Of a stretch of 64,000 nt of DNA, positions 8,769-29,317 are shown piece after piece. The position numbers were made by a program, and so were the translations under genes. The stretch is from Candidatus Iainarchaeum sp. Lineage in GTDB: Archaea; Iainarchaeota; Iainarchaeia; Iainarchaeales; DTGL01. The stretch covers positions 76,933-140,932 of the forward strand of contig JAVYME010000001.1 in NCBI GenBank assembly GCA_038736825.1, in the 5' to 3' direction. Below the pieces are notes generated by a model. The model searched no databases. It saw nothing but the letters and a program-made list of their open reading frames with translations, and was not told the origin of the DNA. How positions within the stretch are numbered: the stretch's first letter is position 1; each line of letters opens with the position of its first letter.

Positions 8769-9175
8769 ACCAAATGAAACTAGAAATGGAGGAAATTTTC
8801 TTCATTAATGCATTGGACGCAGAAACAGGAGTGATAGCAAAAGACTGCATAATCAGCCCAAAAATGGTGACATTCCTGGTAAAAAACGAGGACATGGGAA
8901 AAGCAATAGGGCCAAAAGGAATCAAAATAAAAAACCTTTCAAAAAAACTCGGCAGAAAAGTGGAATTGCTGGCATTCTTTGAAAGCCCTGAAGAGTTTTT
9001 CCGAAAAGCATTCCCTGAAACCGAATTCGGGGAAATCAAAAAAGAACAAAACTCGCTTGTCCTGCAGATAAACTCCATGGAAAAAAAGAGAATGATGCAG
9101 GACACAGGCAAATTCAAAAGAATAAAAAAGATAGCGGAGAGGAATTATAATATAACCGGAATAAAAATGAAATGA
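8765..9175 (+). CDS. nusA: archaeal NusA-like transcription termination factor (KH domain)
   Basis: KH-domain GxxG motif ([23 protein letters not shown]). Conserved position before S12. Confidence 0.8.
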
Positions 9176-10223: not shown

Positions 10224-10249
10224 AAAAAAACTGTCTGGAAACAGGTTTA

Positions 10250-12454
10250 ATGGTGGTTTCAATGGGAAGAAGAGAGGAAATGGTGAAACTGGCACAAGAC
10301 ATGATGGAAAACAAAGACAACATAAGAAACATAGGGATTGTGGCACACATAGACCACGGCAAAACCACCATGACAGACTCACTAATTGCAGCAGCCGGCT
10401 TGATGTCAGAAGAACTCGCAGGAAAACAATGCTTGATGGACTTCTATGAACTCGAACAACAGCGCGGCATAACAATCAATGCAGCAAACATTTCCGTAGT
10501 ATACAAACACGAAGACAAGCCCTACCTAATAAACGTGATAGACACTCCAGGACACGTGGACTTCGGCGGAGACGTAATAAGAGCGATGCGCGCAGTCGAC
10601 GGCGTAATAGTTTTAGTTGACGCAGTTGAAGGAGTAATGCCACAAACAGAAACCGTGATAAGGCAAGCCTTAAGGGAAAACTGCAAGCCGGTTTTATTCG
10701 TAAACAAAGTAGACAGGCTAATAAACGAATTAAAAGTAAGCGAAGACGAAATGCAAGACCGCTTGATAAAAGCAATTTCAAAAGTGAACACGCTCATAAA
10801 AAAGAACGCGCCAAAACAGTTTGCAGAAAAATGGATTGCAAAAGTTGAAGACGGTTCAGTAACCTTTGGCTCAGGGCTGTACAAGTGGGCAATCTCAGTG
10901 CCAAAAATGAAAGAAACCGGGGTTTCCTTTAAAGAAATATACAAATACTGCAAAGAAGGCAAAATGAAAGAACTCTCAGCAAAAATACCGCTATACAGGG
11001 CATTAATGGACATGATAATCAGACACCTGCCAAGCCCAGTTGAAGCACAAAAATACAGGATTCCAGAAATATGGAAAGGCGAAATAGAAAGCGAAACCGG
11101 AAAAGCAATGCTAAACTGTTCAAGCGAAGGCCCGCTTGCAATGATGGTAACCGACGTAGTGGTTGACCCGCACGCAGGAGAAATTGCAACAGGCAGAGTA
11201 TACTCTGGAAAAATCACTAGAGGAATGAAAGTATTCCTAATCAACTCCAAAAAAGAAGTCAACGTGCAAGCAGTCGGCGTTTACATGGGACCAGAAAGAG
11301 TCAACATGGAATTCATTCCAGCAGGCAATATTGCCGCAATTTCAGGCACAAAAGAGGTATATGCAGGCGAAACCATTGCCACAGAGCAAATCCAGCCATT
11401 TGAATCCTTTAAAAGCTCTGTCGAACCAGTAATGACTGTCAGCATAGAAGCAAAAAAAACCGCAGACCTGCCAAAACTCATAGAAGTACTAAAACAAGTC
11501 TCAAAAGAAGACCCAAACGTTGTAGCAACAATAAACCAAGAAACAGGCGAACACCTGGTAAGCGGAATGGGCGAACTCCACTTGGAAGTCACAAGGTACA
11601 GAATTGAAGTAGACCACAACGTGCCAATAGAAGTAAGCCAGCCAATTGTCGTATACAAAGAAACAACCCTCAAAAAATCGCCATCCTATTTTGGCAAAAG
11701 CCCAAACAAACACAACCAATTCAAAATAAGCGTTGAACCAATCAAGCCAGAAATCCTTGAAAAACTAATAGAATCAAAACTTGAAGGAAAAATAAGAAAA
11801 AAAGACATTGAAAAAATGGCAAAACTGGAAGAAATAGGCTTTTCAAAAGACGATGCAAAAAACACTTGGTGGGTTCACAACAACAATGTACTAATAGACT
11901 GGACAAAAGGAGTTCAAGCAATCCAAGAAATAAAAGAACTCGTATGCCAGGGATTCGTGGACGCAATGAACGAAGGCCCCCTAGCAAAAGAAAAATGCTA
12001 TGGCTTAATAGTAAGGCTGGAGGACGCAAAACTCCACGAAGACGCAATCCACCGCGGTCCAGCACAAGTATTGCCAGCAATCACTAGAACAATCTATGCA
12101 TGCATGTTAAGCGCAAACGCAGTATTGCTTGAACCAAGACAGAAAATGTTCCTTTCAGTGCCACAAGACTACATGGGGGCTGTCAGCAGGGAACTACAAC
12201 AACGCAGAGCCACAATCAACGAAATTCAAAGCGAAGGCGACCAAACCATAGTGATAGCAATCGCTCCAGTAAAAGAACTCATTGGCTTTAGTTCAGCCAT
12301 AAGGGGCGCAACACAAGGAAGAGCAATCTGGACAGCCGAATTCTATGACTATAAAGCGCTACCGGAATCACTGCAAAAAGAAGTAATAAAACAAGTGAGA
12401 ACAAGAAAAGGAATGGAACCAGAACCAAAACCAGCAGCCTTCTTCCTAGAATAA
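10250..12454 (+). CDS. fusA: translation elongation factor 2 (aEF-2)
   Basis: G-domain NIGIVAHIDHGKTT, DTPGHVDF and NKVD. Diphthamide-region AIHRGPAQ. 734 aa. Confidence 0.95.
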   Translation: MVVSMGRREEMVKLAQDMMENKDNIRNIGIVAHIDHGKTTMTDSLIAAAGLMSEELAGKQCLMDFYELEQQRGITINAANISVVYKHEDKPYLINVIDTPGHVDFGGDVIRAMRAVDGVIVLVDAVEGVMPQTETVIRQALRENCKPVLFVNKVDRLINELKVSEDEMQDRLIKAISKVNTLIKKNAPKQFAEKWIAKVEDGSVTFGSGLYKWAISVPKMKETGVSFKEIYKYCKEGKMKELSAKIPLYRALMDMIIRHLPSPVEAQKYRIPEIWKGEIESETGKAMLNCSSEGPLAMMVTDVVVDPHAGEIATGRVYSGKITRGMKVFLINSKKEVNVQAVGVYMGPERVNMEFIPAGNIAAISGTKEVYAGETIATEQIQPFESFKSSVEPVMTVSIEAKKTADLPKLIEVLKQVSKEDPNVVATINQETGEHLVSGMGELHLEVTRYRIEVDHNVPIEVSQPIVVYKETTLKKSPSYFGKSPNKHNQFKISVEPIKPEILEKLIESKLEGKIRKKDIEKMAKLEEIGFSKDDAKNTWWVHNNNVLIDWTKGVQAIQEIKELVCQGFVDAMNEGPLAKEKCYGLIVRLEDAKLHEDAIHRGPAQVLPAITRTIYACMLSANAVLLEPRQKMFLSVPQDYMGAVSRELQQRRATINEIQSEGDQTIVIAIAPVKELIGFSSAIRGATQGRAIWTAEFYDYKALPESLQKEVIKQVRTRKGMEPEPKPAAFFLE

Positions 12455-12507
12455 AAAAAACACAAAAAAACAGCATTTATGCGGCTTTAAAAGCAAAAAA
12501 GCCAAAG

Positions 12508-12524
12508 AATAATATTTAAATTTA
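12508..12524 (+). promoter_or_regulatory. putative BRE/TATA promoter element for tuf
   Basis: AT-rich aatatttaaattta about 80 nt upstream of the tuf ATG. A hairpin GCCCTGTCAAGGGC and an RBS-like GGAGGG follow. Confidence 0.3.
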
Positions 12525-12599
12525 TTCCTTTAACTATTATTAGAAGCCCTGTCAAGGGCAAAGGAATTCTAGCATTTTAATCGGTTAGGAGGGCATTTT

Positions 12600-13871
12600 A
12601 TGGCTGAAAAGAATCACTTGAACCTGATCTTCATTGGCCATGTTGATCACGGTAAATCAACCACTGTTGGAAGGCTCTTGTATGACTCTGGCACGCTAAG
12701 CGAGCAAGAATACAGGAAGCTGGAAGCAGAAGCAGCAGCACAGGGAAAGGCAAGCTTTGCCTTTGCCTATGCAATGGACAGGCTGAAAGAAGAAAGAAAA
12801 AGAGGCCTGACAATAGACCTGGCATACAAAAAATTCAAGGCAAAAAAGAACGATTTCACAATAATTGACGCTCCAGGCCACAAAGACTTTGTAAAAAACA
12901 TGATTACCGGAACAAGCCAAGCGGATGCCGCAGTCCTAGTGATTTCGGCAAAAGAAGGCATCCAGCCGCAAACCAAAGAGCACGCCTTCCTCGCCCAAGT
13001 AATGGGCATAAAACAACTAGTAATAGCAGTCAACAAAATGGACGAAGTGAATTATGACAAGGGTCGCTTTGAACAAATGCAAAAAGAAATCCTGAAGTTC
13101 TTGACAGGCGTTGGAATAAAAGAAGACCAGCTCAAATTTGTGCCAATTTCCGCCTTTAAAGGAGACAACGTGGTAAAAGGCAAGGGCAAGCTGGACTGGT
13201 GGAATGGCCCAACACTCCTAGACGCACTAGACGAACTAAAAGCACCACCACTGCCAACAGATAAACCGCTCAGGCTGCCAATACAGGACGTATACAACAT
13301 TAAAGGCGTTGGCACAGTTCCAGTGGGAAGAGTTGAAACAGGAATAATGAAACCAGGCGACAAAATAGTGATAATGCCAGCAAACAAGACAGGCGAAGTA
13401 AAAACAATTGAAATGCACCACGAACAATTATCGCAAGCAGTTCCAGGAGACAACATTGGCTTCAACGTGAGAGGCTTGGGAAAAGAAGACGTGCAAAGAG
13501 GCGATGTTGCAGGACACACAAACAACCCGCCAACAGTCGCCGAAGAATTCATTGCACGAATTGTGGTCCTAAACCATCCAACCGCAATCCCAGTAAACTA
13601 CACTCCAGTATTCCACTTGCACACAGCACAGCTTTCCTGCCAGATAACCGAAATCCAGAAAAAACTTGACCCGAAAACAGGAGCAGTAGTTGAAGAAAAC
13701 CCCAAGTTCTTGAAAACAGGCGATGCGGCAATAGTAAAAGTAAAACCAACAAAACCAGTAGTAGTGGAAGAATACAAAAAATTCCCACAACTAGGCAGGT
13801 TTGCAATCAGGGACATGGGGCAAACCGTTGCAGCAGGAATGGTTGAAAGCGTTACACCAAAGAAAATGTAA
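12600..13871 (+). CDS. tuf: translation elongation factor 1-alpha (aEF-1A)
   Basis: [17 protein letters not shown] and NKMD motifs. 423 aa. Confidence 0.97.
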
Positions 13872-13924
13872 CGCTTCCCTTTTTTCTCTTCCAAATGATT
13901 TAAAAGCAATGGCAGTGGTGAAAA

Positions 13925-14233
13925 ATGCAAAAAGCACGCATCAAACTAGCAAGCCCAGACTACAAGCAATTAAACGAAGTAAGCGCAAAAATCGTTGAAG
14001 TCGCAAAACGCACTGGAATAAAGTTTTCAGGACCAGTTCCACTGCCAACAAGAAAACTGGTTGTCCCCACAAGAAAAAGCCCTGCTGGCGGGGGAACAGA
14101 AACCTACGAGCGATGGCAAATGCGCATCCACAAGCGCATAATAGACATAGAATCCGATGAAAGAACACTGCGCAAAGTAATGCACATAGAAATACCGGAA
14201 AAAGTGCACATAGAAATAGAACTAATAGAATAA
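13925..14233 (+). CDS. rps10: ribosomal protein S10 (S20e)
   Basis: ARIKLASPDYKQLNEVSAKIVEVAKRTGIKFSGPVPLPTRKL matches S10. Conserved position after tuf. Confidence 0.95.
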   Translation: MQKARIKLASPDYKQLNEVSAKIVEVAKRTGIKFSGPVPLPTRKLVVPTRKSPAGGGTETYERWQMRIHKRIIDIESDERTLRKVMHIEIPEKVHIEIELIE

Positions 14234-14246: not shown

Positions 14247-15758
14247 TTGCGCAAAAAAGTTAAAAATTTCGCGCCTGCTTTGTCTGTGCAAGAAAGCATT
14301 TTTTTAGGTTTTGCAAAAGGAATTATTGCACGCATTGAAGAAAACCGCCAAGGCATTGCCTTTTGGATCGCACTTCTCTATTTTGTGTGCATTGTCAAGG
14401 CAATTTTTGGCTGGTTTGCAAGCCTGCTCACAACGTTTTCAAGGCCTGTTTTTTTCCTTGCCGGCTGGCCCTTGTTCTATTTCAACATATTTATTTCACT
14501 GGCACTAATTCTCTCTTTTTTCACTAAAGAAACAGTGGATAAAACCTCAAAAGCAGTTTTTGCCTTTTCTTTCATTGTAATCATTATTCCGATTGTTGAT
14601 TTCATTGCATATGGCCCTGAAGTGTGGCGCATCTTTCCAATGAGCATTGAAGAAATTGCTGCACAGTTTTTCTCTTTAGCTGGTCTTTTGCCTGGTTCTG
14701 TCCTGCACTTGGGGCAGGGCTTGACGTTTTGGTTAGCCCAAGCCCTGATTGCAGTGTATGTTTTCACCAAAAAAGGAAGTTGGCTGAAAGCATTGGGAGC
14801 AATGTTTTGCTTTTATGTAGCCTGTTTGGCATTATCCTCAGTCCCTTTCCTTGCATCCATCCTTTTTAGCCTTGGCAACACCTACAATTACACAGTAATA
14901 ATGCACGGGCTCGCGCTATATGCGCTCTCAGCATTTTTGCTTGCTGTAATCTGGCTCTTTATCTATGACCGCGCACTCCTAAAAAAAGTGGTTTTGGAAT
15001 GCAAGCCTGAACGAGCCGCACATTATCTTGCCCTTGTGCTAATGGGCTGGCTTTATGCACTAACGCTTTTCTCAATAGAAAAGCCCAATTTTTTGGGACT
15101 TTTTTTTGCGTCATTTTCAATTTTTTTGGCATTTGAAAGTGCTCTGGCGTGCAATAATCTATTTGACAAGGAATTGAAGGGTATCAAGGCAAGGCAATAC
15201 CGCGGGATTTGCCTTTCGCTGTTCACCCTTGCCCTTGTTTTGGCATATTTTGTAGGAGAAACAATTTTTGCATTAGTGCTTTCAACAATGCTCCTTGGAA
15301 TTGCCTACTCTGCAAAGCCAATTAGCCTAAAAAATCTCGGCTTTCTCAACAATGTGGTAATAGGCCTAATTTCAGCACTCGCATTCATTGTAGGCATTAT
15401 CACACAAAACCCAAAAATTCCCTTTAATGCAACGCTTGCAGTTTTTGCAACATTCTCACTTGCAGCCAACATAAAGGACCTTAAAGACTTTGAATCCGAT
15501 AAAAGGAAGGGCATTCAAACCCTGCCAGTGCTTTTGGGCAAAGAAAAAGGATTGAAAGTGATTGCTGTGCTTTCATCAGTTTCCTTTATTATTCCAGCAG
15601 CTTTTTTAGACTATCCTAATTTATTGCTTGCGGGCATAATTTTTGGCACTCTAAACTTTCTGGCACTAATGAAAACAAAAAAAGAAACTGCAACATTTGC
15701 ACTATACTTCGCTTATGCCTTGCTATTTGCGCTTTCACTGCTTTATCGAATCCCTTGA
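14247..15758 (+). CDS. polytopic membrane protein with C-terminal UbiA-family prenyltransferase-like domain fused to a ~290-aa N-terminal membrane domain
   Basis: The second UbiA Asp-rich motif is present (KDLKDFESDKRKGIQTLPVLLG = DxxDxxxD...TLPV). The first motif is degenerate (NNLFDKELKG). About 14 predicted TM helices. Confidence 0.55.
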   Translation: MRKKVKNFAPALSVQESIFLGFAKGIIARIEENRQGIAFWIALLYFVCIVKAIFGWFASLLTTFSRPVFFLAGWPLFYFNIFISLALILSFFTKETVDKTSKAVFAFSFIVIIIPIVDFIAYGPEVWRIFPMSIEEIAAQFFSLAGLLPGSVLHLGQGLTFWLAQALIAVYVFTKKGSWLKALGAMFCFYVACLALSSVPFLASILFSLGNTYNYTVIMHGLALYALSAFLLAVIWLFIYDRALLKKVVLECKPERAAHYLALVLMGWLYALTLFSIEKPNFLGLFFASFSIFLAFESALACNNLFDKELKGIKARQYRGICLSLFTLALVLAYFVGETIFALVLSTMLLGIAYSAKPISLKNLGFLNNVVIGLISALAFIVGIITQNPKIPFNATLAVFATFSLAANIKDLKDFESDKRKGIQTLPVLLGKEKGLKVIAVLSSVSFIIPAAFLDYPNLLLAGIIFGTLNFLALMKTKKETATFALYFAYALLFALSLLYRIP

Positions 15759-16388: not shown

Positions 16389-17639
16389 TTGTGCATTACA
16401 TTGCATTGTTTTGACTCTTGTGAAGGTGAAAAATTGGAAAAATCTGGAAAAAAAGGAACTATCGTGTTTTTACTAATTACACTTTTAGTTGCACAAGTTT
16501 TTGCTGCAGATTGCCTGGATTGGATGGAATCACAATCTGGAAAAGAAGTGGGAGACAATATGAATGATGACGGCGTTTTAGGACCTGGGGAAACACTCGC
16601 AAATAATAAAACAAATAAGCCTGGAGAAATCGGAGTTAATAATGCAAGTACTGTTAAACAAATTGGCGAGAACTACATTAATGGCTCAACTGTGCCTGTA
16701 ACAATATCAAACGATAATGGCACAACAGTACAGACAGACCCAAACCTAAAATATGAACTCACTCCAATTTGGGGTTACAGCAAAGAGTACGGATTTTACG
16801 TTAGCGGTTGGAAAGTCAGTGCTGTGGAAGAGGAAACTGAAAAAGATCTGGATTTTGGTGAGGGTTGGACTCCAGTTAGTCCGACTCCAAAGCCTGTGAC
16901 CCCTACTCCAACTCCAACGATAACTCTAACGCCAACACCTACGCTAACCCCTCTCCCAAACCAAGCACCAACCGCAGACTTTGAAATGTATCCAGAGCCA
17001 GCAAATGGCATGGTTCCTTTGACTGTAAAGTTTAAAGATAAAAGTTTTGACCCAGACGGTTCCATTGTTTCATGGAATTGGGAGTTCGGGGTAGGTACAA
17101 TTGAAGGAACAAATTGTTGCACAAATAAGGAAACAAGCCATGTTTACACTTCAGCTGGCTATTATACTGTCCGGCTAACCGTAACAGACAACTTGGGGGC
17201 AACAGCATCTAATCAAAAATCTATAATTGCAATACAAAAAGCGGCAATAACAATTTTCAAATCAAACAATCCAGAAAACCCAAACCAGCCAGCACAAATT
17301 ATTATTGCATGCGGCAAGCAGGCAGCCCTCCAATTGGAATTCCTTGACAAGGACAGCCAGCCACTTTCCGGAGTTCCAACTCAACTAATGGATGGAGCTC
17401 ACGGCCTGCCATTTTGCAATATCACACCTACAATTCTCAACATAACTGGCTTTCCAAAACCAGGGCTTTATCAAATAAAGGCAAACATTCTTGGAGAGGA
17501 GTGCACTAATTGTCCAAAAACGATCCACATAGTTGTCGGTCAAGAAATGCCAGAACTCCAAACTCCAGAAATCCCAGCAATACTAACCGCAGTAATCGCA
17601 CTTGCAGTGATTGTCATCACAAACAGGAAAAAGAAATAA
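16389..17639 (+). CDS. secreted surface protein with Thr/Pro linker, PKD domain and conserved C-terminal sorting signal (PEIPAIL-TM-NRKKK)
   Basis: Signal peptide (alternative TTG start at 16434). TPTPKPVTPTPTPTITLTPTPTLTP linker. PKD-type domain (PTADFEMYP...GMVPLTVKF...WNWEFG). The C-terminal ~35 aa are almost identical to the 27182..29317 protein. Confidence 0.75.
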   Translation: MCITLHCFDSCEGEKLEKSGKKGTIVFLLITLLVAQVFAADCLDWMESQSGKEVGDNMNDDGVLGPGETLANNKTNKPGEIGVNNASTVKQIGENYINGSTVPVTISNDNGTTVQTDPNLKYELTPIWGYSKEYGFYVSGWKVSAVEEETEKDLDFGEGWTPVSPTPKPVTPTPTPTITLTPTPTLTPLPNQAPTADFEMYPEPANGMVPLTVKFKDKSFDPDGSIVSWNWEFGVGTIEGTNCCTNKETSHVYTSAGYYTVRLTVTDNLGATASNQKSIIAIQKAAITIFKSNNPENPNQPAQIIIACGKQAALQLEFLDKDSQPLSGVPTQLMDGAHGLPFCNITPTILNITGFPKPGLYQIKANILGEECTNCPKTIHIVVGQEMPELQTPEIPAILTAVIALAVIVITNRKKK

Positions 17640-17700
17640 AAAAAGCCAATATATTAGTTCAAAGAGAAAAAAAGCAGGGGGACAATTTTTGGTTTGCTCC

Positions 17701-19275
17701 CTATTTTTTTCCTTTTTTTTCTTGTGTTGATTTTTTTAACAATAGTTCTCTTTCTTGTTGTAGTTTGAGGAGTCTTTCCCTGTAAGCGCTTTCTGAAAGC
17801 CGTCTCTTGAAAAAATCCAGTTTTGCTTTTTTTTCAAGTTCTGAAATTTTTTCAAGGCGCCTTTCAATGGAGCGCTTTTCCAGTTGCTTGAGTTTTTTTC
17901 TCCAAAAAAATGCTGAAATTGAAAGAATTAAGGCTGTTATTCCGCCTCCAAAAACAATTATTTTGCCCCAATCTATGGGTTCAATTATTTCTGTTGAAAT
18001 CTTTGCTTTTCCTGAAAAAGGCGGTTTTAAAACAATTTCAATGGTGTGGGTTCCCTGTAAAGCAAATGGCAGGCTTGCAGAGCAAAAGCCTTTTTCAGTG
18101 CAGGAAAGAGTAATTGAGTGCTGTTTTTCGTCAATGTAAAGCAATGCTTCAACCTCATTGCTTGCAACTTGTTGTCCTTCCACTTGTACTTCTATTTTTG
18201 TAGCTCCGCCACGACTTTCAGTTCTGCCTTCCATTGGGAAAACGAACAAAACCTGGTTTTCAGTCGGGCTTGCCCCTTCTGGAGAAAGCATTTCAAGAGA
18301 AAAACTGTTTTTTTCAGTTTTTGTTCCAGAAGCGTTTTTGCCTGAAACAGTTATCTTCAATTCACTGTCTTTCTCGCTAACGGGGCGCGTGAATTCTGCA
18401 CTCCAGGCTCCTCCTGCAAAAGACAATTTTTTTCTTTCCAGTATTTTTTCTTTTGACAAAAGCCAAGCCTCAAAATCCCCGCTGTTGACAACAGTTTCTT
18501 TTTGGTGAAGAGAAAAGGAAATTTTTCCAACAGGCGAGCCAAAAAAATATTTCTGTTCTTCATTGAAGGGATTGCGGACTTGAATGGTTGCTGGCTTGAA
18601 GAAAAGCGGAATGAAAAAAGTTTTTTCCTTTGAGCCTGCAAGCGCTGCCTTCAATTCCAGTTTTTCAAATTCTTCAAAGGAAGCGTCTGGAACAAAAGAG
18701 CCTTCCAAAAAAAGGTTTTTGGAATCCCATTGCAAGGCAATGCTTTTGCCTTTTATTAAGGCACTAAAATGGGAAAAGGCTTCCTTTTCACTTGAACCCA
18801 AAAACCTTTGAATGTAGGAATTGTCTTTGTCCAAGAAAGCAATACGTATCTTTTTTTCAACTCCTGTTTCGATTGCAATATCCTGTCTTGCCTCTGAAGA
18901 GGGCGGCAAAAATGCTTTGAATTCAGTTCTCGTGATTCGCACTGGCACTGTTTTTTCCCCTAAAAGCATGCCGTTGTCCTTAAGCTTTATTTGTGCTTTT
19001 ACTTGAAAGGTTTTCGGGGAAAAATCTATTGCTTCAAGGTAATATGCATGGCTTGCAAAAGGGCTTTCGGTTGAAATTTCAGTGCCATCCCCAAAACTCC
19101 AAACAAAATCCAAAACGCTTTCAGGAAAATTTTCCAGCTTTAAATTGAAATCCACTGCTTGCGCTTCAAATGCCTCGCTAGTGCTCGCTGAAAGCCCGAA
19201 ATCAAGCGAGCTATGGGCAAATGGCAAAAGCAAGAAAAGAAAGGCTGCCAAAAAAAGGCTTTTTGCCATTTTCAC
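17701..19275 (-). CDS. type-I membrane surface protein (PKD-like repeats) with coiled-coil K/E/R-rich cytoplasmic tail
   Basis: N-terminal signal peptide, WSFGDGTE PKD-like motif and a C-terminal TM (ITALILSISAFFW). The tail LEKKAKLDFFKRRLSESAYRERLLKL is homologous to the tail of the upstream 1059-aa protein. Its stop overlaps the next gene's start by 4 nt. Confidence 0.7.
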   Translation of the reverse strand: MKMAKSLFLAAFLFLLLPFAHSSLDFGLSASTSEAFEAQAVDFNLKLENFPESVLDFVWSFGDGTEISTESPFASHAYYLEAIDFSPKTFQVKAQIKLKDNGMLLGEKTVPVRITRTEFKAFLPPSSEARQDIAIETGVEKKIRIAFLDKDNSYIQRFLGSSEKEAFSHFSALIKGKSIALQWDSKNLFLEGSFVPDASFEEFEKLELKAALAGSKEKTFFIPLFFKPATIQVRNPFNEEQKYFFGSPVGKISFSLHQKETVVNSGDFEAWLLSKEKILERKKLSFAGGAWSAEFTRPVSEKDSELKITVSGKNASGTKTEKNSFSLEMLSPEGASPTENQVLFVFPMEGRTESRGGATKIEVQVEGQQVASNEVEALLYIDEKQHSITLSCTEKGFCSASLPFALQGTHTIEIVLKPPFSGKAKISTEIIEPIDWGKIIVFGGGITALILSISAFFWRKKLKQLEKRSIERRLEKISELEKKAKLDFFKRRLSESAYRERLLKLQQERELLLKKSTQEKKGKK

Positions 19276-22200
19276 CTCTCCTTGTAAAGCCTTGCCAAAA
19301 CCATTTCAATTACTTTTTCACTATAGCCCTCGTTTCTAAGCCCTCTTGCCACCTCTTCTCTTGAAAACTCTCCGATTCTTCCGCAAAGTCTTGTTGTGAG
19401 CACTATGGCTTGAACTTTTTCAGGCGCTTTCTTGAAATCCTTTGAGGGAAAAACTGTTTTCCAAAAGCCTGTTTTAATCCAAAAACCGCTTTTTAATAGA
19501 GAATCAATGCATTTCAGTCCTTTGCTTAAAAGCCTTATTTGTTCGCCGAGCTCGCTTTCAGAAATATGCCTTTTGAAAAACTCAAACTTGTATTTTTTCT
19601 CCAGTCCAGTCAAGCGCTCTTTTTCCCTAAGCAAGAAAGCCCTTTCAGAAAAAACATTTCTTAAAAGCAATGCAAGGAAAACCAGGATTACAATGCAAGC
19701 AAAACCGAAAGCCAGCAAAGCAAGGCTTAAGCCTTGCTCAATGGTTGCAATAACTGTTCCTTCTCCAGAAAAATCTTCTTTTAAAACAAGCTTGAGTGAA
19801 TGCGTTCCAGCCAGCAAGGGCGAACTCAAAACCCCCTTGTGCAATTTTTCTTTTTCGTCAAACTTGAGTGAAACAGGCTGCAGGTTGCCGTCAACCAGCA
19901 AATCGCTGTTCAATGCAATGTTGGCAAACAAGTGGTTGTTGGGCTGGAAAAACCTAACACTTATCTCGCTTATTTTGCCATTCCAGGGCTTGTTCAAGCC
20001 AGCGCTGGGTTGAACAAAAACCATTTGCAGGTTGTTTGAAAGTGAAATTGTTAAAAACTCTAAATCCATCAATTCTTTGCCGTCAAGAGTGGCGTGTGCT
20101 TCAAGCCGGCAGCTCACGCTTTTTTTGCCAGAATCCTGCAATGGCAAAAGGATTTTCGCAGAATATTGCTGGCTTTCTTTATCAAAATCCATTTCCTCCA
20201 AAAAATCCAGTTCAGGGCATTCCACAATGATTTTTTTGTTTTTAACCTTGTAATTGTCTGAAAGAATTTTTGCCTTCAAGTTAACTGTTTGCCCGAAAGC
20301 ATACTCGCGCTCACTGTTCACTGGCTCCAATATTGAAATAACCAGTGCCGAGTTTTTTGCAAGCGGAACCGCTTGCACTTCATCAACCTTGTTGCCTGCA
20401 GCATCCCTGCCCTTCAATTTCAACTTTAAACCATGCAAAAAATCGGTTTCATTCACAGTATGGTCAAAATAAAGCGTGTAATCAAACTCGTTTTTTTCAA
20501 TTCTCACTTCTTCCTCTTTTTTGCCTGAAACAAGCACTGCCCTTAACTCGCTTGGAAAAACCACGATTATGCCGTTCAACAAAAACATTACTTTGGCTTT
20601 TTCAAGGGAATCAAGCAAAAAATATTTTTTGCCCTTGAAGACATTGGTTGCCTTGAAAAAAGAAGGCTCAAAAAACACTGGCGCTTTTGCATGGAACTCG
20701 CGCTTTTCCCCCTTAACCTCACTCAAAGCATGAATTTCCAAGAATTCAGTTTCAGAAAGCGAACTCCAAGGCTTAAAAATTCCCTCAAAAATTGTTCCAG
20801 AACAATGCATTTCAACCAGCGAGCCAGCAAGCAAAACCCTGAGCGAAATTCCTTGACAAGCAATCCTTTCATCGGCTTCATCCAAAAACTCCAAGCGCAC
20901 ATTCAAATCCCTTTGCTTTGAATTTGTCTGCACATGGGTTGGCTCCAAAACTCTTGCCTTAAACTTGGACTTTAAAACCTTAACCTTAACCTCTGCGCCT
21001 GCAGTCTGCCCTTTGGAATCACTAACGCGAACCTTCACCAAAAACTCTCGCTCTTTCTCCAAACCCAAAAAATAAGCGTGAAATGCCTCTCTCTGGCTTG
21101 CATTAGAGTCATCACCGAAATCCCAGAAAAATTCAAGCGACTCTTCATTCAAAGCATTAGTGATTGCAGTGAAATAAAAATATTGTCCTTCAAATTGCTG
21201 CCTGCTTTCAGGGTCAACCAGTACTGTCAAAACCTGCAATGGCTCGTCCTTTAAAGAAGTTTTAAAGGACAAAACAGGGCTTTCCCTTGAAAGGCTTTGC
21301 GTTGAAGAAACTGCCTTGAAAAAATAGTTTGTTTCCGGTTTCAATCCAAGCAAGTGGATTTTGTGGTGAATTGTTTTAGTGCCGTCAAAAACCCTTGAAC
21401 CCAAAGCACTGGTTTCACCGAACTCCACTGCAGAATCGGATTGCACTAAAGTGTTCCAGTAAACCTTTGCATGAGTGGCAAAAGCAAAAACCTGAACATT
21501 TTTTGGATCAATATCCTGCAATCCTGCTTTCAAAATGCAGCGGTTTTCTTGACTGCAATAAAAGCCTTCCTCGCACTTTGCAGTGCAATCAATTTTTTGC
21601 CCGCAATTATTGCTTTTAGAACCACACTCGCTCTCGGAACACGAAAGGGCTTTGCAGCATTTTCCATTAATGCAATTCCAGCCAGCACTGCAAGAGCACT
21701 GAATTGTGCCACCGCAATCATTTGAAAAAGAACCGCATTGTCCTGCAAAATCCCTTGAACACGACTTGCAGGATTGCAAGCATTTCCCGTTCAAGCAACC
21801 CCCCGAACAAAACTCGCTTTCAATCCTCGAGCAATCCGCATTAGAGTAAACCCTTGTAGAACCAGAACAAAACCATCCTTGAACACAAGGTTGAAGCAAA
21901 CCACTAGAAGCAGCACTAGAACCCTGTGGTTTGCACTCAGGACACAAAGAACTGCCATCACCTGATTGTGATAAATTTTGTCCTGGCATTTGATAAACAG
22001 CTGCAGGAGAGCCCTTAGCTTTTGATTGCAAATAATCATCATATGGGTCGCCCCCCTTAGACAAATCCTCATAAGAACCACCGGCAGGTGCCGCTCCATC
22101 ATCTTGTCCTAGCTCATTTACTCCTCCTGTAGCTCCTGTTTGACTCAAGCCATCATCATTTTGGACAAAAGTTGGAGTGGAAGCGCCATCAGCAGCCCCG

Positions 22201-22451
22201 CTAGGCAAACTTGGGCCAGGCGAGTTGTTAGTTGGGGGATTGAGTGCGTCGTCTGAAACAGGGCAATCTGGACAGTAGTATGCGCCTGTGCCTTCGGTTA
22301 CAGCAAAATATGCTGTTTTTTCTTTAGGCAAGGCTAATGAAAAGAAACCGGTTTTTTCGCTTAAAATGGTTTCATAAAACAGCCAGGTTATGGCTAGCAC
22401 TAAAACTATTGCCAACAAAAAGGCAGGCTTTTTTGAAAAAACTGAAGGCAT
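19272..22451 (-). CDS. giant type-I membrane surface protein: acidic G/D/S/P-rich region, Cys-rich EGF/laminin-like module, FN3/PKD-like repeats, TM and ~150-aa cytoplasmic tail
   Basis: 1059 aa with signal anchor and a run of CxxxxC repeats (CSGGCLNGKCLQSCKSC...CGQKIDCTAKCEEGFYC). WDFGDDSNA PKD-like and PETNYFFKAVS FN3-like motifs. C-terminal TM followed by LEKKYKFEFFKRHISESELGEQIRLL. Confidence 0.75.
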   Translation of the reverse strand: MPSVFSKKPAFLLAIVLVLAITWLFYETILSEKTGFFSLALPKEKTAYFAVTEGTGAYYCPDCPVSDDALNPPTNNSPGPSLPSGAADGASTPTFVQNDDGLSQTGATGGVNELGQDDGAAPAGGSYEDLSKGGDPYDDYLQSKAKGSPAAVYQMPGQNLSQSGDGSSLCPECKPQGSSAASSGLLQPCVQGWFCSGSTRVYSNADCSRIESEFCSGGCLNGKCLQSCKSCSRDFAGQCGSFSNDCGGTIQCSCSAGWNCINGKCCKALSCSESECGSKSNNCGQKIDCTAKCEEGFYCSQENRCILKAGLQDIDPKNVQVFAFATHAKVYWNTLVQSDSAVEFGETSALGSRVFDGTKTIHHKIHLLGLKPETNYFFKAVSSTQSLSRESPVLSFKTSLKDEPLQVLTVLVDPESRQQFEGQYFYFTAITNALNEESLEFFWDFGDDSNASQREAFHAYFLGLEKEREFLVKVRVSDSKGQTAGAEVKVKVLKSKFKARVLEPTHVQTNSKQRDLNVRLEFLDEADERIACQGISLRVLLAGSLVEMHCSGTIFEGIFKPWSSLSETEFLEIHALSEVKGEKREFHAKAPVFFEPSFFKATNVFKGKKYFLLDSLEKAKVMFLLNGIIVVFPSELRAVLVSGKKEEEVRIEKNEFDYTLYFDHTVNETDFLHGLKLKLKGRDAAGNKVDEVQAVPLAKNSALVISILEPVNSEREYAFGQTVNLKAKILSDNYKVKNKKIIVECPELDFLEEMDFDKESQQYSAKILLPLQDSGKKSVSCRLEAHATLDGKELMDLEFLTISLSNNLQMVFVQPSAGLNKPWNGKISEISVRFFQPNNHLFANIALNSDLLVDGNLQPVSLKFDEKEKLHKGVLSSPLLAGTHSLKLVLKEDFSGEGTVIATIEQGLSLALLAFGFACIVILVFLALLLRNVFSERAFLLREKERLTGLEKKYKFEFFKRHISESELGEQIRLLSKGLKCIDSLLKSGFWIKTGFWKTVFPSKDFKKAPEKVQAIVLTTRLCGRIGEFSREEVARGLRNEGYSEKVIEMVLARLYKER

Positions 22452-22654
22452 ACTATACTTAAGGTTTCTTTTTTATTAATCTTTTCCTTGCTCTTTCAGA
22501 AAGGTTTGAGAAAGCAAAACCATTAAAACACAAAAAAACAGCAAAACAATAAAAAGTTATGGCCAGGCAGTGCAATTAAAAACATTTTTAAAAACATACA
22601 ACATAACTATTTTTAATTAAATAATGAAATTTTTTGGCGTGGAGGGGTTTGAGA

Positions 22655-23926
22655 ATGCTTTTCGGTTTTCCTTTGAAATTCTTTGACCAAAAATTTAAAC
22701 CAGTTGCTTTTTTATCGGTTTTGGCTTTACTGGTTTTTTTTGCCTCGAATTCTTTTGCTCAACAAAGAGTGGAACTGGCAAATCCAGTGTGCTTTTATGA
22801 TGTCAATCAAATGCACGAATACTTTACTGACTTGCAGGGCAATAAAATTCCAAACCTGGACTTTATAAGGCTTTTTAGCGCTATTGAAGCAAAACCCCAA
22901 AACGACCCTTCAATAAAGGACGAAATAAAGCGCGCGCTCAGGGGACAATTTTATACTGGTTATTTGCAGCTCGCTTACACTATTGAAGGCGGAAAAAAGA
23001 ACCCTTTCAAGGGAGGCAATTATGCTAAATGCGATTTAGGTTGCTTTCCACAATTTACTTATTTTGGGAGAACCTATTACAACAAGTGCATTACAAGGAT
23101 TTGCACTGAGGGCAGAATGGTTGGCACTCCTCGTTTTTGTGATCCAAAAATCGGACCCGATATTTACATTCACTACCTGACTTTTTGGTGCGAAGATGTT
23201 CCACAGGCAACAATGATTTGCGGGCCGTCAGCTCATTGCGAGCAAAGAGCGGATGGCACTTTTTTGTGTGAATACAATAGCGCAACTTCTTCAAACCAAA
23301 GCAATGGCGTGGAATATGTTTTGGTTGCTCCAGCGGATTCAAGCTCTCAAATAATGGTTGCAGCATACCAGAACGGAAAGCTCATTGCAAGCAAGCCGAT
23401 TGGCACAACAGGCCCTGTTCATGCAAGCCAGGCTTATGCTTTTGCGCAAAGCACTGGATTGGCTTCGGTTGTGGCTTCAGCACTCCAGCAAAAAACAACA
23501 ACCACTGCTTCCAGTAAGCCTAGCACAACCTATTCTGCATCATACAATGGCAGCACAAACTATTCTTCAACTCCAATAAGAATGCAGGTTGTTGCTAGTG
23601 CCACAAAAGGCCTTTCAGCCTATAGAGCGCCAACTGCAACCTACAAAACATATTCAACCACAAGCACAGCCAGCACTGCAACATACGCTTACAGCACAAG
23701 CCAAACCAAAAGCACTTCTGCAAGCAGTTATTCTTCAAGCACAACTTATTCGCCAACAAAAACCACTTATAGCAATACGGTTTCACCTTATTCAACTTCA
23801 AATTACAGGATTCAAGCAACAACTTATAATCCGACAAGGACAGCATACTCTACAAACGCTTACACAAGCACTTACAGCACCACAACACAGGCTACGGCGA
23901 GTGTTTCAAAATACAGGCAAACCTGA
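22655..23926 (+). CDS. secreted protein with Cys-containing N-terminal domain and ~170-aa Ser/Thr/Tyr-rich low-complexity C-terminal region
   Basis: Signal peptide MLFGFPLKFFDQKFKPVAFLSVLALLVFFASNSFAQQ (the track begins at a TTG at 22634). The C-terminus is dominated by S, T, Y and A (TYSTTSTASTATYAYSTSQTKSTSASSYSSSTTYSPTKTTYS...). Confidence 0.6.
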   Translation: MLFGFPLKFFDQKFKPVAFLSVLALLVFFASNSFAQQRVELANPVCFYDVNQMHEYFTDLQGNKIPNLDFIRLFSAIEAKPQNDPSIKDEIKRALRGQFYTGYLQLAYTIEGGKKNPFKGGNYAKCDLGCFPQFTYFGRTYYNKCITRICTEGRMVGTPRFCDPKIGPDIYIHYLTFWCEDVPQATMICGPSAHCEQRADGTFLCEYNSATSSNQSNGVEYVLVAPADSSSQIMVAAYQNGKLIASKPIGTTGPVHASQAYAFAQSTGLASVVASALQQKTTTTASSKPSTTYSASYNGSTNYSSTPIRMQVVASATKGLSAYRAPTATYKTYSTTSTASTATYAYSTSQTKSTSASSYSSSTTYSPTKTTYSNTVSPYSTSNYRIQATTYNPTRTAYSTNAYTSTYSTTTQATASVSKYRQT

Positions 23927-23953: not shown

Positions 23954-25285
23954 TCAGGTCGTTTCCAGAAGCCATTTCCATAAAGGCATAAACCTTATTT
24001 TTTTACCCTTGTATTCTTCAATTCCTTCAAAATCAGCGTTAACCACCAGCAAATTGTTACACTTGAGCTCTGTGCTTGCTTTGAGCAGTCCTTCAAGTTC
24101 TCGTTTTTTGGTTTCAAAATCACTCAAATCATAGCAAACCTGAATTAACTGGAGCACCTTTGGACCTTCCTTTAAAACAAAATCAACCTCTTTGCCTGAA
24201 GAGTCCTTCCAGTAATAGATTTCTGCAGGGGCTTCCAAATAAGACTTTCTCCTAAGCAATTCAATTGCAACCGCATTTTCAACAAGCTTGCCATAATTTT
24301 GGCTTAATTTGAAAGAAACCGCGTTTACAAGGCCAGTGTCAATACAATAGATCTTTTTAGGGGCTTTGATTTGCTCTTTCAACTTGGGTGAAAATCTTTC
24401 AAGTTTGAAAAACAAATAGGAGTTTTCCAAATAAGCAATCCAATTGGACACCGTGTGAGTGCTCTTTAAGCCCAAAATGTTTTTCAGCCGGTTGTAAGTT
24501 AATTCAGAAGAGGTATTGGAAATCAAATACCTTGAAAGCTCTTTAAGTTTCGAAACATATTTTATTTTATACCTTTGAATTACGTCCTTTTCAATGATGT
24601 CACTATAAGTTTCTATAAGAAACAGTCTGCCCAGCTTAAAAGCCAGGGGAAACCCGCCTTCACGCAAATATCTTTCCAAAAAATTCTTTAATTTTGCAAC
24701 AGACTTTGTGGAATACTGGTCTTTTTTATCAAACTCAACCCCAGCATAATCCAAAAACTCTCTGAAGCTGAACGGAAAAAGAACAAAATCAATATGCCTG
24801 CCGGTTAAAAAAGTGGAAAGCTCTTTACTCATCAATCGCGCATTGCTGCCAGTGACAATTACCTTCTTCCCAGTGCTGACTCTAGAAACAAAACGCTCCC
24901 ACCCACTAACATTCTGGATTTCGTCAAAAACAAGAAGGCTAACATCGCCTTTTAAAGAATAAACTGCCTCTATAACTGAATTCAAGTCACGAACAGCCAC
25001 GCCGAGTCGCTCATCTTCAAAATTCACATATCCTCTCCGGTCTGATTCAAAACATTGAAAAGCAAAAACAGACTTGCCACATCGCCTGACACCGGTTATT
25101 ATCACTATAACATCCGTGGAAATAAACTTTTTAACTTGGCTAAGGCATTCCCTCTCAATAATTCGCTCACTCTTGAACTTATCAAGCAAAGCCTCTTCTC
25201 TGTCCACAATTGCAGATTTAATATCCCCCAACAAAACCATAAAAAAAAAGTAACGCAAAGATTTTAAAAAACTTTGCGTTGGCAA
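23954..25285 (-). CDS. AAA+ ATPase of the COG1373/DUF4143 family
   Basis: Walker A ITGVRRCGKS and Walker B LLVFDEIQ. Overall archaeal 'ATPase + DUF4143' architecture, 443 aa. Confidence 0.8.
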   Translation of the reverse strand: MPTQSFLKSLRYFFFMVLLGDIKSAIVDREEALLDKFKSERIIERECLSQVKKFISTDVIVIITGVRRCGKSVFAFQCFESDRRGYVNFEDERLGVAVRDLNSVIEAVYSLKGDVSLLVFDEIQNVSGWERFVSRVSTGKKVIVTGSNARLMSKELSTFLTGRHIDFVLFPFSFREFLDYAGVEFDKKDQYSTKSVAKLKNFLERYLREGGFPLAFKLGRLFLIETYSDIIEKDVIQRYKIKYVSKLKELSRYLISNTSSELTYNRLKNILGLKSTHTVSNWIAYLENSYLFFKLERFSPKLKEQIKAPKKIYCIDTGLVNAVSFKLSQNYGKLVENAVAIELLRRKSYLEAPAEIYYWKDSSGKEVDFVLKEGPKVLQLIQVCYDLSDFETKKRELEGLLKASTELKCNNLLVVNADFEGIEEYKGKKIRFMPLWKWLLETT

Positions 25286-26379: not shown

Positions 26380-27185
26380 TTGAGAATGAAAAGATTTGGT
26401 TTTTTGCCTTCAGTTTTTTACTGTCTCGCCATGTTCGGCTTGATTTTCACGCTAGTGGCAGCCCAAGAAGAAGTAAGGCAGCTTTCCATTAAAATTGAAG
26501 GCTTGCGCTATGTAAGGCATGAAACAGTAACCATTACGGCGCTTTTTGATGGGCAACCCGTTGCTGGCGTTGATGTAAATGTTTTTTTCAAAGATTTGAA
26601 CCTGAAAAAACAGACCAAAACAAAATAATATTGCAAAGAATAGAAGATTATAAGACAGACAGTCAAGGCAAGTTTTCCTTTAAATTGCATGAAGCCGGCA
26701 CTTACTTTTTATTTTTTGCCAAAAAAGAAGGAACCATTTTTTACGCAGCAAGCGAAAAAATAGATTTTTTGATAAATCCAAGACCATATTTCAGTGCAAG
26801 CAATGGCGTTTACAATCTTTGCTTTAGGGAACCAATTGGCTCAATAACAATCATTGAAGGCGAGAAAAGAACAACCCAAAGCCTTGATGAAAACAATTGC
26901 ACTCAATACTCTCCAAAAACAGAGTCCTTCACAGTTGAAACCCCTTACAGCAAAGAATTCAAAAAGATTTCAATACCAGTAAAAGTTGAAACAGAAAAAC
27001 CAACCCCTGTCCCAACACAACCCACTCCAATACAAACACAATTTGAAGAAAAAACAAAGCCGATTTCACAACCAAAAACACAAACCCAGCCAGACTTACT
27101 GTTACCTATCAGCATATTGTTAGTTGCAAGCATATGCTTGGTTGCTGCAGGAGTTTACCTCAGAAAACGGAGGATGAATTCATGA
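26380..27185 (+). pseudogene. frameshift-interrupted gene for a small surface protein (signal peptide + carboxypeptidase-regulatory/transthyretin-like beta-sandwich + Thr/Pro linker + C-terminal TM anchor)
   Basis: Two consecutive ORFs (26380..26628 in frame 1, 26631..27185 in frame 0) together encode one domain (VTITALFDGQPVAGVDVNVFF | YKTDSQGKFSFKLHEAGTYF). Frame 0 is open from 26574. A T7 run (26582-26588) and an A6 run (26605-26610) lie in the overlap. Confidence 0.5.
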
Positions 27186-29317
27186 AAAAAATACTCTTTG
27201 TTTTGGCTCTTTTTTTAATGCTTTCCTGTGCCAATGCAGCAAAAAAAATCCAGCTCACTGTAGAAGACGACGGCATTGACCCAGTAACCCCAGAAGAAGA
27301 TGCTGACACAAAAGACAAAGCATACCTTGTAGTAGGACCAGGGCCTTACACTTTGACAGTCAAAATCCAAAACTTGCAGGAAATAGAAGAGTTTGGCGGT
27401 CCAGTTGATGTAATGGCTTTATTTGATGCCAGTTATAGCTTTAATGATGAAATCGAGGTTGTCAAAAATGACATAGAAAAACTTGGAGCAGAACTGGATC
27501 AAAACTGCCAAAAAATAGGCATTCCGGGGTGCTTCAATTTAGGGCTTTACGTTTTTGAAGGAGGCACTTGCGCTAGAAATTGTTCCAACCAATATGTTTG
27601 CACTCAAATAAATTGCAGAATAGTCACAGTTAAAGATTGGTGCACTGAGTGTACTGTAATAACAATTCCAGGCAAGTGCCAAGTTTGCGATTATGAAACT
27701 GAATGCCGTGAGGTTTGTGAATTGCGTGATAACGTGAAAGTATGCTGGCCAGAGTGCCACGAAGTGCCAAAAAACTGTCGAATGGAGCCATGTGACACAT
27801 ACAAGTGGGATTGCAAACTAGTGCCTTGCTTTGTAGAAGAAGAGGTATGCGATGAACATTGTGAATGGCAAGAAGTTTGTGGTTGGACTGTGTGCAAAAG
27901 GCCTGATGCTGCTTTTTGGAATTCCACTGATTTCCAGCAACCAGTGACTCCGCCATTGCCTTTGGATTATGCAAACGATGTTGGCTTGCTTCCCATAACA
28001 AACAATATGACGCTTGTCAAAAACAACTTGGAAAAAATTAGTGCTCCAAACTTTTCAACACAACAGCTAGAGCCATGGGGTAGCATTATAACCTATGTTT
28101 TGAATGCACCTGAAGTAAAATGGCAGGAAAACCACCGGAGGGCAATAATATTAATCACGGATGAAAAAGATGATTCTGGCACTTACAAGACTGCAGCACA
28201 ACTTGCAAAAGACCAAAACGTGGTTGTGTTCGGCATTATTGGAAAAGGAGTGGGTTCAGATGAAGCGAAAGCCAATGCTGAATATGTTGCAAACCTGACA
28301 GGCGGAAAGGTTTTCACTTATACAAATTCTGAAGAAATAAAAGCCCTATTGCGTGAAATAATGGGCTCACTCATAAAAGAAGACACTTTTGTTTTTTCAA
28401 AAGAATTAGGGCCTAACTGGGATGGAATAACTGCAAATTTTGATCTGCCGCCGGTTCCAAGAAAGGGACCCGGACTTGTTTACCCAATCAAGGGCCTTGC
28501 TCCAGCGGTTTGGCCTACAACTGAGGAATATTTCCATTACAGGGTTTCCTTGAAAAGCAATCCGGCTGTTTTTGATGATGCTTGGGTTAGAGTGACCATT
28601 AATACGCCGCCAACTGCCGATTTTGAAATGATTCCAACTCCGCCAACTGGAATGGTGCCTTTAAGCGTAAAATTCGTCAACAAATCAACAGACAACGAAG
28701 GAAACATTACAAACTACCATTGGGTTTTTGGCGATCCATCTTCAGGAGCAGACAATGAAAGTAATGAAGAAAACCCAACACACGTTTTCCAATATGCTGG
28801 AGAATATTCAGTCACTCTTACAGTAACCGACAGCGGGCAAGCAAGTCACAGTGTTACAAAAAAAGTCATGGCAAAAGAAAGGCCCCTAATTTCTGCGTTC
28901 AAGGCGAATAATCCCAAGACACCAGATGAAGGACTGGACATCACGGTTTACTGCACAAAATTCCAAGCCTTAATCAAAATAGAAATACTGGACAAGGATG
29001 GATTGTTGGTGACAAAGGACAAAGACGGCAACCCCATAACAAACCCAATAAAAATTCCTGGAACAAATGATTGGCCGAGATGCGGAAGCACCATTAGCCC
29101 TGACATCAGGCTTTCAAGCGGAGTCTACCAAATAAGGGCAACAATAATGAAAGATGATGGCAGCGGTCCAGACCCGGATTGCACTAATTGTCCGAAAAGC
29201 ACACACATAACCGTGGGAATGAGCGCACCAGAAATGCAAACCCCAGAAATTCCAGCAATACTAACAACAATAATAGCGCTTGCAGTGATTGTCATTACAA
29301 ACAGGAAAAAGAAATAG
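27182..29317 (+). CDS. secreted multidomain surface protein: vWA-like domain (MIDAS DxSxS) with Cys-rich insertion, PKD domain, conserved C-terminal sorting signal (PEIPAIL-TM-NRKKK)
   Basis: Start chosen at MKKILFVLALFLMLSCANA, preceded by GGAGG. LFDASYSFNDE (DxSxS), AIILITDEKDD, VVVFGIIG. 26 Cys within ~120 aa. PTADFEMIPTPPTGMVPLSVKF PKD. C-terminus is near-identical to the 16389..17639 protein. Confidence 0.75.
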   Translation: MKKILFVLALFLMLSCANAAKKIQLTVEDDGIDPVTPEEDADTKDKAYLVVGPGPYTLTVKIQNLQEIEEFGGPVDVMALFDASYSFNDEIEVVKNDIEKLGAELDQNCQKIGIPGCFNLGLYVFEGGTCARNCSNQYVCTQINCRIVTVKDWCTECTVITIPGKCQVCDYETECREVCELRDNVKVCWPECHEVPKNCRMEPCDTYKWDCKLVPCFVEEEVCDEHCEWQEVCGWTVCKRPDAAFWNSTDFQQPVTPPLPLDYANDVGLLPITNNMTLVKNNLEKISAPNFSTQQLEPWGSIITYVLNAPEVKWQENHRRAIILITDEKDDSGTYKTAAQLAKDQNVVVFGIIGKGVGSDEAKANAEYVANLTGGKVFTYTNSEEIKALLREIMGSLIKEDTFVFSKELGPNWDGITANFDLPPVPRKGPGLVYPIKGLAPAVWPTTEEYFHYRVSLKSNPAVFDDAWVRVTINTPPTADFEMIPTPPTGMVPLSVKFVNKSTDNEGNITNYHWVFGDPSSGADNESNEENPTHVFQYAGEYSVTLTVTDSGQASHSVTKKVMAKERPLISAFKANNPKTPDEGLDITVYCTKFQALIKIEILDKDGLLVTKDKDGNPITNPIKIPGTNDWPRCGSTISPDIRLSSGVYQIRATIMKDDGSGPDPDCTNCPKSTHITVGMSAPEMQTPEIPAILTTIIALAVIVITNRKKK

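Follow-up and report, generated by a model that had tools for sequence, protein, structure and literature searches.

Background

As a rule, archaeal surface proteins are held at the cell either by a lipid anchor or by a transmembrane (TM) helix that has only a few residues after it. In the Sulfolobales, SlaA and SlaB are encoded by adjacent, co-transcribed envelope genes rich in immunoglobulin-like (Ig-like) domains, and SlaB has a helical segment by its C-terminal TM anchor. RecX, to which part of the tail described below will be compared, binds a protein filament. Surface proteins rich in Ig folds and with C-terminal TM helices are commonly encoded by DPANN genomes, and the S-layer-like candidates of Nanobdella aerobiophila (MJ1_0299, MJ1_0309 and MJ1_0707) carry 13-17 sequons (bioRxiv 10.1101/2023.10.27.564410). 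This work concerns two adjacent genes of Candidatus Iainarchaeum sp., in a stretch of 64,000 nucleotides (nt) that we call the window (contig JAVYME010000001.1, positions 76,933 to 140,932). Gene B (QXK06_00375, MEM0359775.1; 19272..22451, minus strand) encodes a type-I membrane protein of 1059 amino acids (aa), a full-length member of its family. Gene A (QXK06_00370, MEM0359774.1; 17701..19275, minus strand) encodes a shorter paralog of B. Both end in a conserved cytoplasmic tail, the first part of which, block 1, is common to the two proteins; the last part, block 2, is lacking in A.

Each of these systems resembles B and A in some respects and departs from them in others. The N. aerobiophila candidates have the same signal peptide, tandem Ig-like/PKD ectodomain and single C-terminal TM helix, again with several paralogs in a small genome. 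This is a likeness of architecture. A and B are sequon-poor, and a conserved cytoplasmic domain is not reported for the N. aerobiophila proteins, whereas the family described here, from the Diapherotrites, has a conserved tail of 66-230 aa. SlaA and SlaB are likewise a two-gene, Ig-rich envelope pair with a helical segment beside a C-terminal TM anchor, but they have no sequence similarity to A and B. In addition, B and A are both anchored and are paralogs, and their helical segment is cytoplasmic, not extracellular. The RecX repeat (PF21982) is a three-helix unit, as block 2 is predicted to be, and the last two helices of block 2 match its positions 13-40. RecX, however, is a soluble protein of three tandem repeats, while block 2 comprises one repeat only, at the C-terminus of a membrane protein, and has no evident link to RecA/RadA. 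The novelty lies in the conserved cytoplasmic domain itself, which joins an unannotated block 1 to a RecX-like block 2 that stands as a lone repeat on a membrane protein.

The original prediction for this locus described two adjacent, giant type-I membrane proteins that share a tail and may couple the outside of the cell to its inside, for example in host attachment. Two co-directional open reading frames (ORFs) of 524 and 1059 aa do lie on the minus strand, but proteins of this size are too small to be called giant. By hydropathy, each protein opens with a hydrophobic signal segment and has a single TM helix in its C-terminal part, as had been proposed.

Conservation of the tail

The tail of A is 66 aa long with an isoelectric point (pI) of 10.5, and that of B is 127 aa long with a pI of 9.8. 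Block 1 occupies residues 933-988 of B (19488..19655, minus strand; it includes LEKKYKFEFFKRHISESEL) and residues 461-511 of A (17743..17895, minus strand; LEKKAKLDFFKRRLSESAYRERLLKL). A hidden Markov model (HMM) of block 1 scores 79 bits in B and 50 bits in A. Its consensus is E+xxLxGLxKK[YFL]K[YF]E[FY][FY]KRHI[ST]ExE[FY], followed by a helix with hydrophobic heptad positions. Block 2 occupies residues 1011-1059 of B (19275..19421, minus strand; 91 bits with its own HMM) and has the consensus …RLAGRxGEFSRxEIxxxxxxEGYSxxVIExVLxxLY, at the end of the protein.

Judged by alignment, block 1 is the best-conserved stretch of these proteins. Orthologs of A are 74% identical in block 1 against 43-52% in the folded segments of the ectodomain, and orthologs of B are 81% identical against 47-71%. 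The same picture holds across ten B-type proteins, in which mean pairwise identity is 0.56 for the first helix of block 1 and 0.51 for block 2, against 0.34-0.49 for the ectodomain domains and 0.23 for the TM helix. The top 25-aa window in this set is residues 943-967 (EKERLTGLEKKYKFEFFKRHISESE). The conserved cytoplasmic tail that the original prediction had claimed is thus borne out.

Within the window the tail is confined to these two genes. The tail motifs quoted in the original prediction have no further copy in a six-frame translation of the window, and a tail HMM run against its roughly 930 ORFs scores these two at expectation values (E) of 4e-15 and 3.5e-24. When the motif is sought elsewhere in the same genome and in related ones, it recurs in further members of the family.

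It could be argued that such a tail has no specific function and is a positive-inside stop-transfer segment followed by charged helical filler. The tail is indeed basic and rich in K, E and R over the pI range just given (9.8-10.5), and block 1 matches no known family. Yet the tail is the best-conserved segment of the proteins, its aromatic and turn residues are invariant across subfamilies in the alignments, and its fold is confidently predicted. Other surface proteins of the same genome, moreover, have a tail of 5 residues. We disfavor the filler idea and regard it as highly improbable.

Predicted fold of the tail

An AlphaFold model of the TM helix and tail of B (predicted local distance difference test, pLDDT, 87.7; predicted template modeling score, pTM, 0.74) predicts that the tail is folded, block 1 as a helical hairpin and block 2 as a three-helix domain. 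The first helix runs unbroken from the membrane to …EFF, about 27 residues into the cytoplasm. The chain then turns at KRHIS (KR-x-[IL]-[ST]-E) and comes back as a 24-residue amphipathic helix whose heptad a/d positions are hydrophobic in 6 of 7 cases. Beyond the hairpin the model has a short aromatic-rich helix, GFWIKTGFWKTVF, which with a basic linker makes up residues 989-1010 (19422..19487, minus strand), and then the three-helix bundle. In A, the HMM and the model likewise place a helix-turn-helix at block 1. The tails had been described as long basic coiled coils; they are basic and helical, and a coiled coil is only conjectural.

The original prediction held that its signaling reading would weaken if the tail were found nowhere else and were disordered and of low complexity, with ectodomains of generic Ig-like repeats only. 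The ectodomain model did match only generic beta-sandwich arrays. The tail is nevertheless recurrent and is predicted to be ordered, so that the outcome described as unfavorable is not the one we find.

The GFWIKTGFWKTVF segment is kept in the Iainarchaeum-type subfamily, and a distant subfamily has a K/E-rich linker in its place. Its hydrophobic moment is not among the top windows, and we do not claim it as an interfacial amphipathic helix.

Block 1 has no match in Pfam in any of 18 sequences. The SHOCT consensus (PF09851), …G-x-I-[ST]-x-x-E-[FY]…K..LL, looks like the KRHI[ST]ExE[FY]…L of block 1, but hmmscan finds SHOCT in none of the 18 block 1 sequences at E up to 10. Profile searches of both blocks against PDB sequences gave nothing significant, and fold searches with the tail model were non-specific. 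An archaeosortase-type sorting signal (PGF-CTERM, Loki-CTERM and the like) is also rejected, since 66 and 127 residues follow the TM helix and no NCBIfam CTERM model matches.

Block 2 weakly resembles RecX_HTH1 (PF21982) in profile comparison. This is the top Pfam match for block 2 in 10 of 16 members, with E below 0.01 in 7 of the 11 that were scored individually, and the alignments cover only positions 11/13-40 of the model. The score of B varies with the fragment scanned, from 17.5 to 23.2 bits, against a gathering cut-off of 26 bits, and P0012 is the sole member that passes (30.1 bits). We do not take B to be a RecX protein. The NCBIfam RecX equivalogs give 12-16 bits against cut-offs of 186-217, and a single repeat sits on a membrane protein. 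The resemblance does allow a bolder scheme, in which the RecX-like domain would grip a cytoplasmic filament or nucleoprotein formed by RadA, FtsZ/CetZ or an actin-like protein, block 1 would oligomerize the receptors, and the adhesin array would be coupled in this way to the cell interior. We consider such a transmembrane linker quite doubtful. If true, it would be a prokaryotic counterpart of integrin and cadherin tails that evolved within the Diapherotrites.

The family and its distribution

The extent of the family depends strongly on how it is sought. Word-indexed searches returned only two other metagenome-assembled genomes (MAGs) and suggested a family of three genomes, which was misleading because FN3 proteins crowded out the true relatives; in such a search the short tail profile missed even its own source proteins. 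They are superseded by an exhaustive hmmsearch of the B tail profile against 1.84 billion cluster representatives, which gave 19 matches. Two of these, P0020 and P0021, are spurious repetitive matches and were removed, which leaves 17 genuine cluster representatives, all of them large PKD/Ig proteins with the tail at their very C-terminus. Further loci, L001 to L010, came from scans of genomes and metagenomes and from contig look-ups. Where both blocks are present they are always C-terminal-most, in proteins of 800-1500 aa. The HMMs also detect members outside their training set, namely P0017, four of the five L005 paralogs, and the proteins of L008, L009 and L010.

All members with a source name come from Candidatus Diapherotrites MAGs (locus-tag prefixes QXK06, NT067, V1493 and ABID38), and two of the member MAGs are Ca. 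Iainarchaeum in GTDB. Viral contigs yielded no relative, and nothing therefore points to a viral origin. On present sequence evidence the family appears to be previously undescribed and has so far been found only in the Diapherotrites.

The homology is not limited to the tail. Residues 413-893 of B match P0026 at E 6e-41 and P0025 at E 1.5e-27, so the conserved unit is the PKD domain, the Ig array, the TM helix and the tail behind a variable N-terminus. The family plan is a signal peptide, a variable N-terminal region, one PKD domain, 4-5 Ig-like beta-sandwich domains, one TM helix and the conserved tail. In one ortholog of B, P0002 (NT067_01575; L001 9767-10000), the deposited start appears truncated; read from an in-frame ATG further upstream, the protein gains MKKFVPSIGLLFLIIILPACFSFVTA…, a classical signal peptide.

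Several genomes carry more than one copy. Besides B, at least two B-type paralogs lie on other contigs of the genome of the window, which brings its B-type proteins to at least three; P0017 (QXK06_05435) is one such paralog, and the accession of P0015 (MEM0360093) falls inside the same assembly block. A distant lineage has five tandem PKD/Ig paralogs of about 1000-1100 aa, all with both tail blocks (L005 1-17681). That array is interrupted by a ProRS gene, on a contig of 36.6% G+C from a JGI metagenome. The related contig L009 carries just one copy, next to ProRS.

Relationship of the two proteins

It is important to realize that the likeness of A and B is not confined to the tail. Full-length BLASTP aligns them at 26-28% identity (E 2e-13), and the alignment is collinear through PKD, beta-sandwich array, TM helix and tail. 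We conclude from this alignment that A and B are paralogs over the whole length of A. B alone has an N-terminal extension, made up of the acidic G/D/S/P-rich spacer, the Cys-rich module and the FN3-like domain. Its Ig-like array is also longer by one domain of about 95 aa, and it runs on for about 70 residues past the end of the tail of A. The tail motif shared by the two proteins therefore comes from common descent of the whole proteins and not from a module joined to unrelated ones. Of the shared tail module that had been proposed, the shared motif stands, and the idea of a module on otherwise different proteins gives way to collinear paralogs with family-wide ectodomain homology.

The A-type protein has block 1 only, wherever it occurs (the window, L001, L003 and L004), and other family loci have no A-type partner. 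A is a derived paralog that has retained only block 1 and is kept directly downstream of B in one clade.

Architecture of the ectodomains

B begins with its N-terminal hydrophobic signal sequence (residues 1-31; 22359..22451; here and below on the minus strand). Residues 65-185 (21897..22259) form the acidic G/D/S/P-rich spacer that had been described, a poorly conserved segment in which identity to the ortholog is 21% and the ten B-type proteins have a mean pairwise identity of 0.16. Next comes the Cys-rich module, residues 186-308 (21528..21896), with repeats of the form C..CG....CG....C.C...[FWY].C....C and about 24 Cys in residues 170 to 305. This module is kept in B-type proteins (0.43 mean pairwise identity). 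The original prediction called it EGF/laminin-like. The Cys-rich block is real, but the likeness gains no significant support, as there is no Pfam match at E up to 1 and the best match among PDB sequences, factor X EGF2, is not significant at E 0.12.

The FN3-like domain at residues 325-398 (21258..21479) matches Pfam Pur_ac_phosph_N at E 1.6e-5 and agrees with the FN3-like segment noted earlier. Its score of 25.8 bits for PF16656 is under the gathering cut-off of 30 bits; the paralog P0014 passes at the homologous position with 31.7 bits. The PKD domain follows at residues 419-491 (20979..21197; Pfam PKD_4, E 2.6e-5) with a WDFGDD motif. In A the PKD domain, with WSFGDG, has a Pfam E of 1e-3 and opens the region of residues 26-430 (17986..19200), in which AlphaFold, Pfam and Foldseek place three further Ig-like beta-sandwich domains. 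The PKD matches of both proteins fall below the Pfam gathering cut-offs, which are 23.5 bits for PF00801 and 27 bits for PF18911; A has scores of 19.4 and 18.4 bits with these two models, and B has scores of 24.6 and 15.7 bits. Five relatives (P0010, P0013, P0022, P0025 and P0026) exceed the PKD cut-off at the homologous position, which supports the membership of A and B by homology. There is one PKD copy in each protein, so the domain that had been read as WxFGDG repeats is present but is not repeated.

Alignment and homology to the model of A give B four Ig-like beta-sandwich domains at residues 496-897 (19761..20966), an array that has one domain more than A and is conserved family-wide. 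The TM helices, placed by hydropathy and seen in the models, are residues 903-932 of B (19656..19745) and 437-458 of A (17902..17967). The AlphaFold model of A (pLDDT 64) has four beta-sandwich domains and then the helix-turn-helix of the tail. Foldseek with its ectodomain finds generic tandem beta-sandwich arrays only, at TM-scores of 0.13-0.2, among them bacterial adhesins, alpha-2-macroglobulin MG domains, cadherins, and S-layer proteins including Sap and SbsB.

These matches raise the question of whether B and A are an S-layer or envelope lattice, the main wall components in the manner of SlaA and SlaB, with the tail as an elaborate membrane anchor. This would suit an Ig-rich operon pair with C-terminal TM anchors that lies beside EF-1alpha/S10 genes in four genomes. 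The S-layer candidates of DPANN archaea likewise have Ig folds, and some of them carry TM helices at the C-terminus (bioRxiv 10.1101/2023.10.27.564410); Sap and SbsB are among the matches just listed. However, N-glycosylation sequons are few and show no enrichment (A has 1 and B has 4, where shuffled sequences average 1.9 and 5.8), and both proteins are membrane-anchored, unlike SlaA. There are also several paralogs per genome, up to five of them in tandem, which is more easily reconciled with a variable surface repertoire than with one lattice protein. On balance we regard a lattice as unlikely.

Two other PKD surface proteins are encoded in the window, one of 416 aa (16389-17639, plus strand) and one of 727 aa with a VWA domain (27134-29317, plus strand). 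They share a near-identical C-terminal signal, …CTNCPK..HI.VG…QTPEIPAILT..IALAVIVITNRKKK*, and have the 5-residue tail after the TM helix mentioned above. Loki-CTERM (NCBIfam NF033507) gives these C-termini 17-18 bits against a cut-off of 19.9, a weak likeness, and the signal may be a distinct Diapherotrites sorting signal.

The operon and its neighborhood

Gene A is 524 aa long when read from GTG 19275 or 522 aa from ATG 19269. The ATG is the more likely start and is also that of the NCBI 522-aa call. With it the B-A junction (AGGAGAGGTGAAAATG) is a 2-nt spacer instead of the 4-nt overlap reported earlier, which holds only from the GTG. The two genes are tightly coupled with either start. A Shine-Dalgarno-like GGAGAGGTGA lies within the end of B (19272..19281, minus strand), 3-12 nt upstream of the ATG of A, and we read it as sequence evidence for translational coupling of the two genes. 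Inspection of the flanks finds a TATA-like ATTAATAAAA (22471..22480, minus strand) 20-29 nt upstream of the ATG of B and an oligo-T run (17661..17673, minus strand) about 30 nt past the stop codon of A. These are a possible archaeal promoter and a possible archaeal terminator, and together they would fit a leaderless bicistronic B-A transcript.

The pair is syntenic in the window, L001 and L004. In all three, B is followed by A with a spacer of 2-8 nt, between the genes of S10/EF-1alpha and those of RpiB/archease/RtcB. L003, a contig fragment of 2.7 kilobases (kb), has the same order and is too short to give the spacer length or the flanks. The gene content of the window is archaeal (split RNA polymerase A', aEF-2, aEF-1alpha, RtcB and SecY).

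Other genes nearby are less constant. A secreted protein of 430 aa, divergent from B, is encoded at 22634-23926 (plus strand). The N-terminal domain of this protein contains Cys, its long C-terminal half is S/T/Y-rich and of low complexity, and the protein is not conserved at the syntenic locus L004. An AAA_14/DUF4143 ATPase gene (23954-25285, minus strand) lies between the surface-protein cluster and RpiB and is absent from the syntenic L001 and L004. On the other side a UbiA-family prenyltransferase with an N-terminal membrane extension of about 300 aa is encoded at 14247-15758 (plus strand), and at L008 a different UbiA gene (3240-4223) overlaps the end of a B-type gene. We considered UbiA as a conserved neighbor of B and reject it, because the two UbiA genes are not orthologs (E 0.028) and their adjacency is coincidental. 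AT skew is very high (0.3-0.5) over the plus-strand gene blocks at 1-14000 and 34000-64000, where the coding strands are purine-rich, and falls between 14 and 26 kb, where both strands carry genes.

Role of the tail

We believe, with moderate confidence, that B and A form an operon of a paralogous surface family so far found only in the Diapherotrites, in which the tail pairs or clusters the proteins and docks them to a partner. The ectodomains of B and A would form a cell-surface array or adhesin. Beneath the membrane, the hairpins of block 1 would bring the proteins together in pairs or clusters, A with B and the paralogs with one another, and block 2 would dock the complex to a cytoplasmic partner. 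A structural role of this kind, pairing or clustering combined with docking, seems to us the most likely one for the tail.

The original prediction preferred outside-in coupling, with ectodomains that bind a host cell or ligand and a tail that relays the event to a cytoplasmic effector or filament. Analogues would be the tails of integrins and cadherins, and RodZ, whose cytoplasmic helix-turn-helix domain binds MreB. A strongly conserved cytoplasmic domain that is predicted to fold is what such a scheme calls for, block 2 is like the repeat of RecX, itself filament-binding, and the ectodomain resembles adhesin and cadherin-like arrays. But Pfam and NCBIfam find no kinase, cyclase, HAMP or other signaling or catalytic domain, RecX_HTH1 being the only match in the tail, and the low TM-scores of the adhesin-like matches mark them as generic. 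As for attachment of an episymbiont to its host, host-associated life is not established for the Diapherotrites, and a review holds that Ca. Iainarchaeum may live independently (PMC6349945). Neither the signaling claim nor the host-attachment claim finds support here, and we find outside-in coupling rather improbable.

Several points also weigh against the structural role that we prefer. One of them it shares with outside-in coupling: the neighborhoods of the family loci differ, and no conserved cytoplasmic partner gene was found in them. The pairing of A with B is drawn only from the operon structure and the retention of block 1 in A, and the role of both proteins from sequence and models. 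Those models were built on alignments of 2-3 sequences only. The match of block 2 to RecX_HTH1 is limited to its last two helices and is below the cut-off in most members. Finally, so few sequons, below the shuffle means, are atypical for a major archaeal envelope glycoprotein.

Conclusions

A conserved tail alone is not proof of signaling or host attachment. In this phylum-wide family, however, conservation is highest in a cytoplasmic domain of 60-130 residues that is predicted to fold, and this does point to a specific interaction at the inner face of the membrane. This could be pairing of surface proteins or docking, in an uncultured lineage. Block 1 and block 2 are two new sequence signatures that can be used to annotate these proteins, and the tail is a concrete handle for finding envelope-connected partners in DPANN cells.

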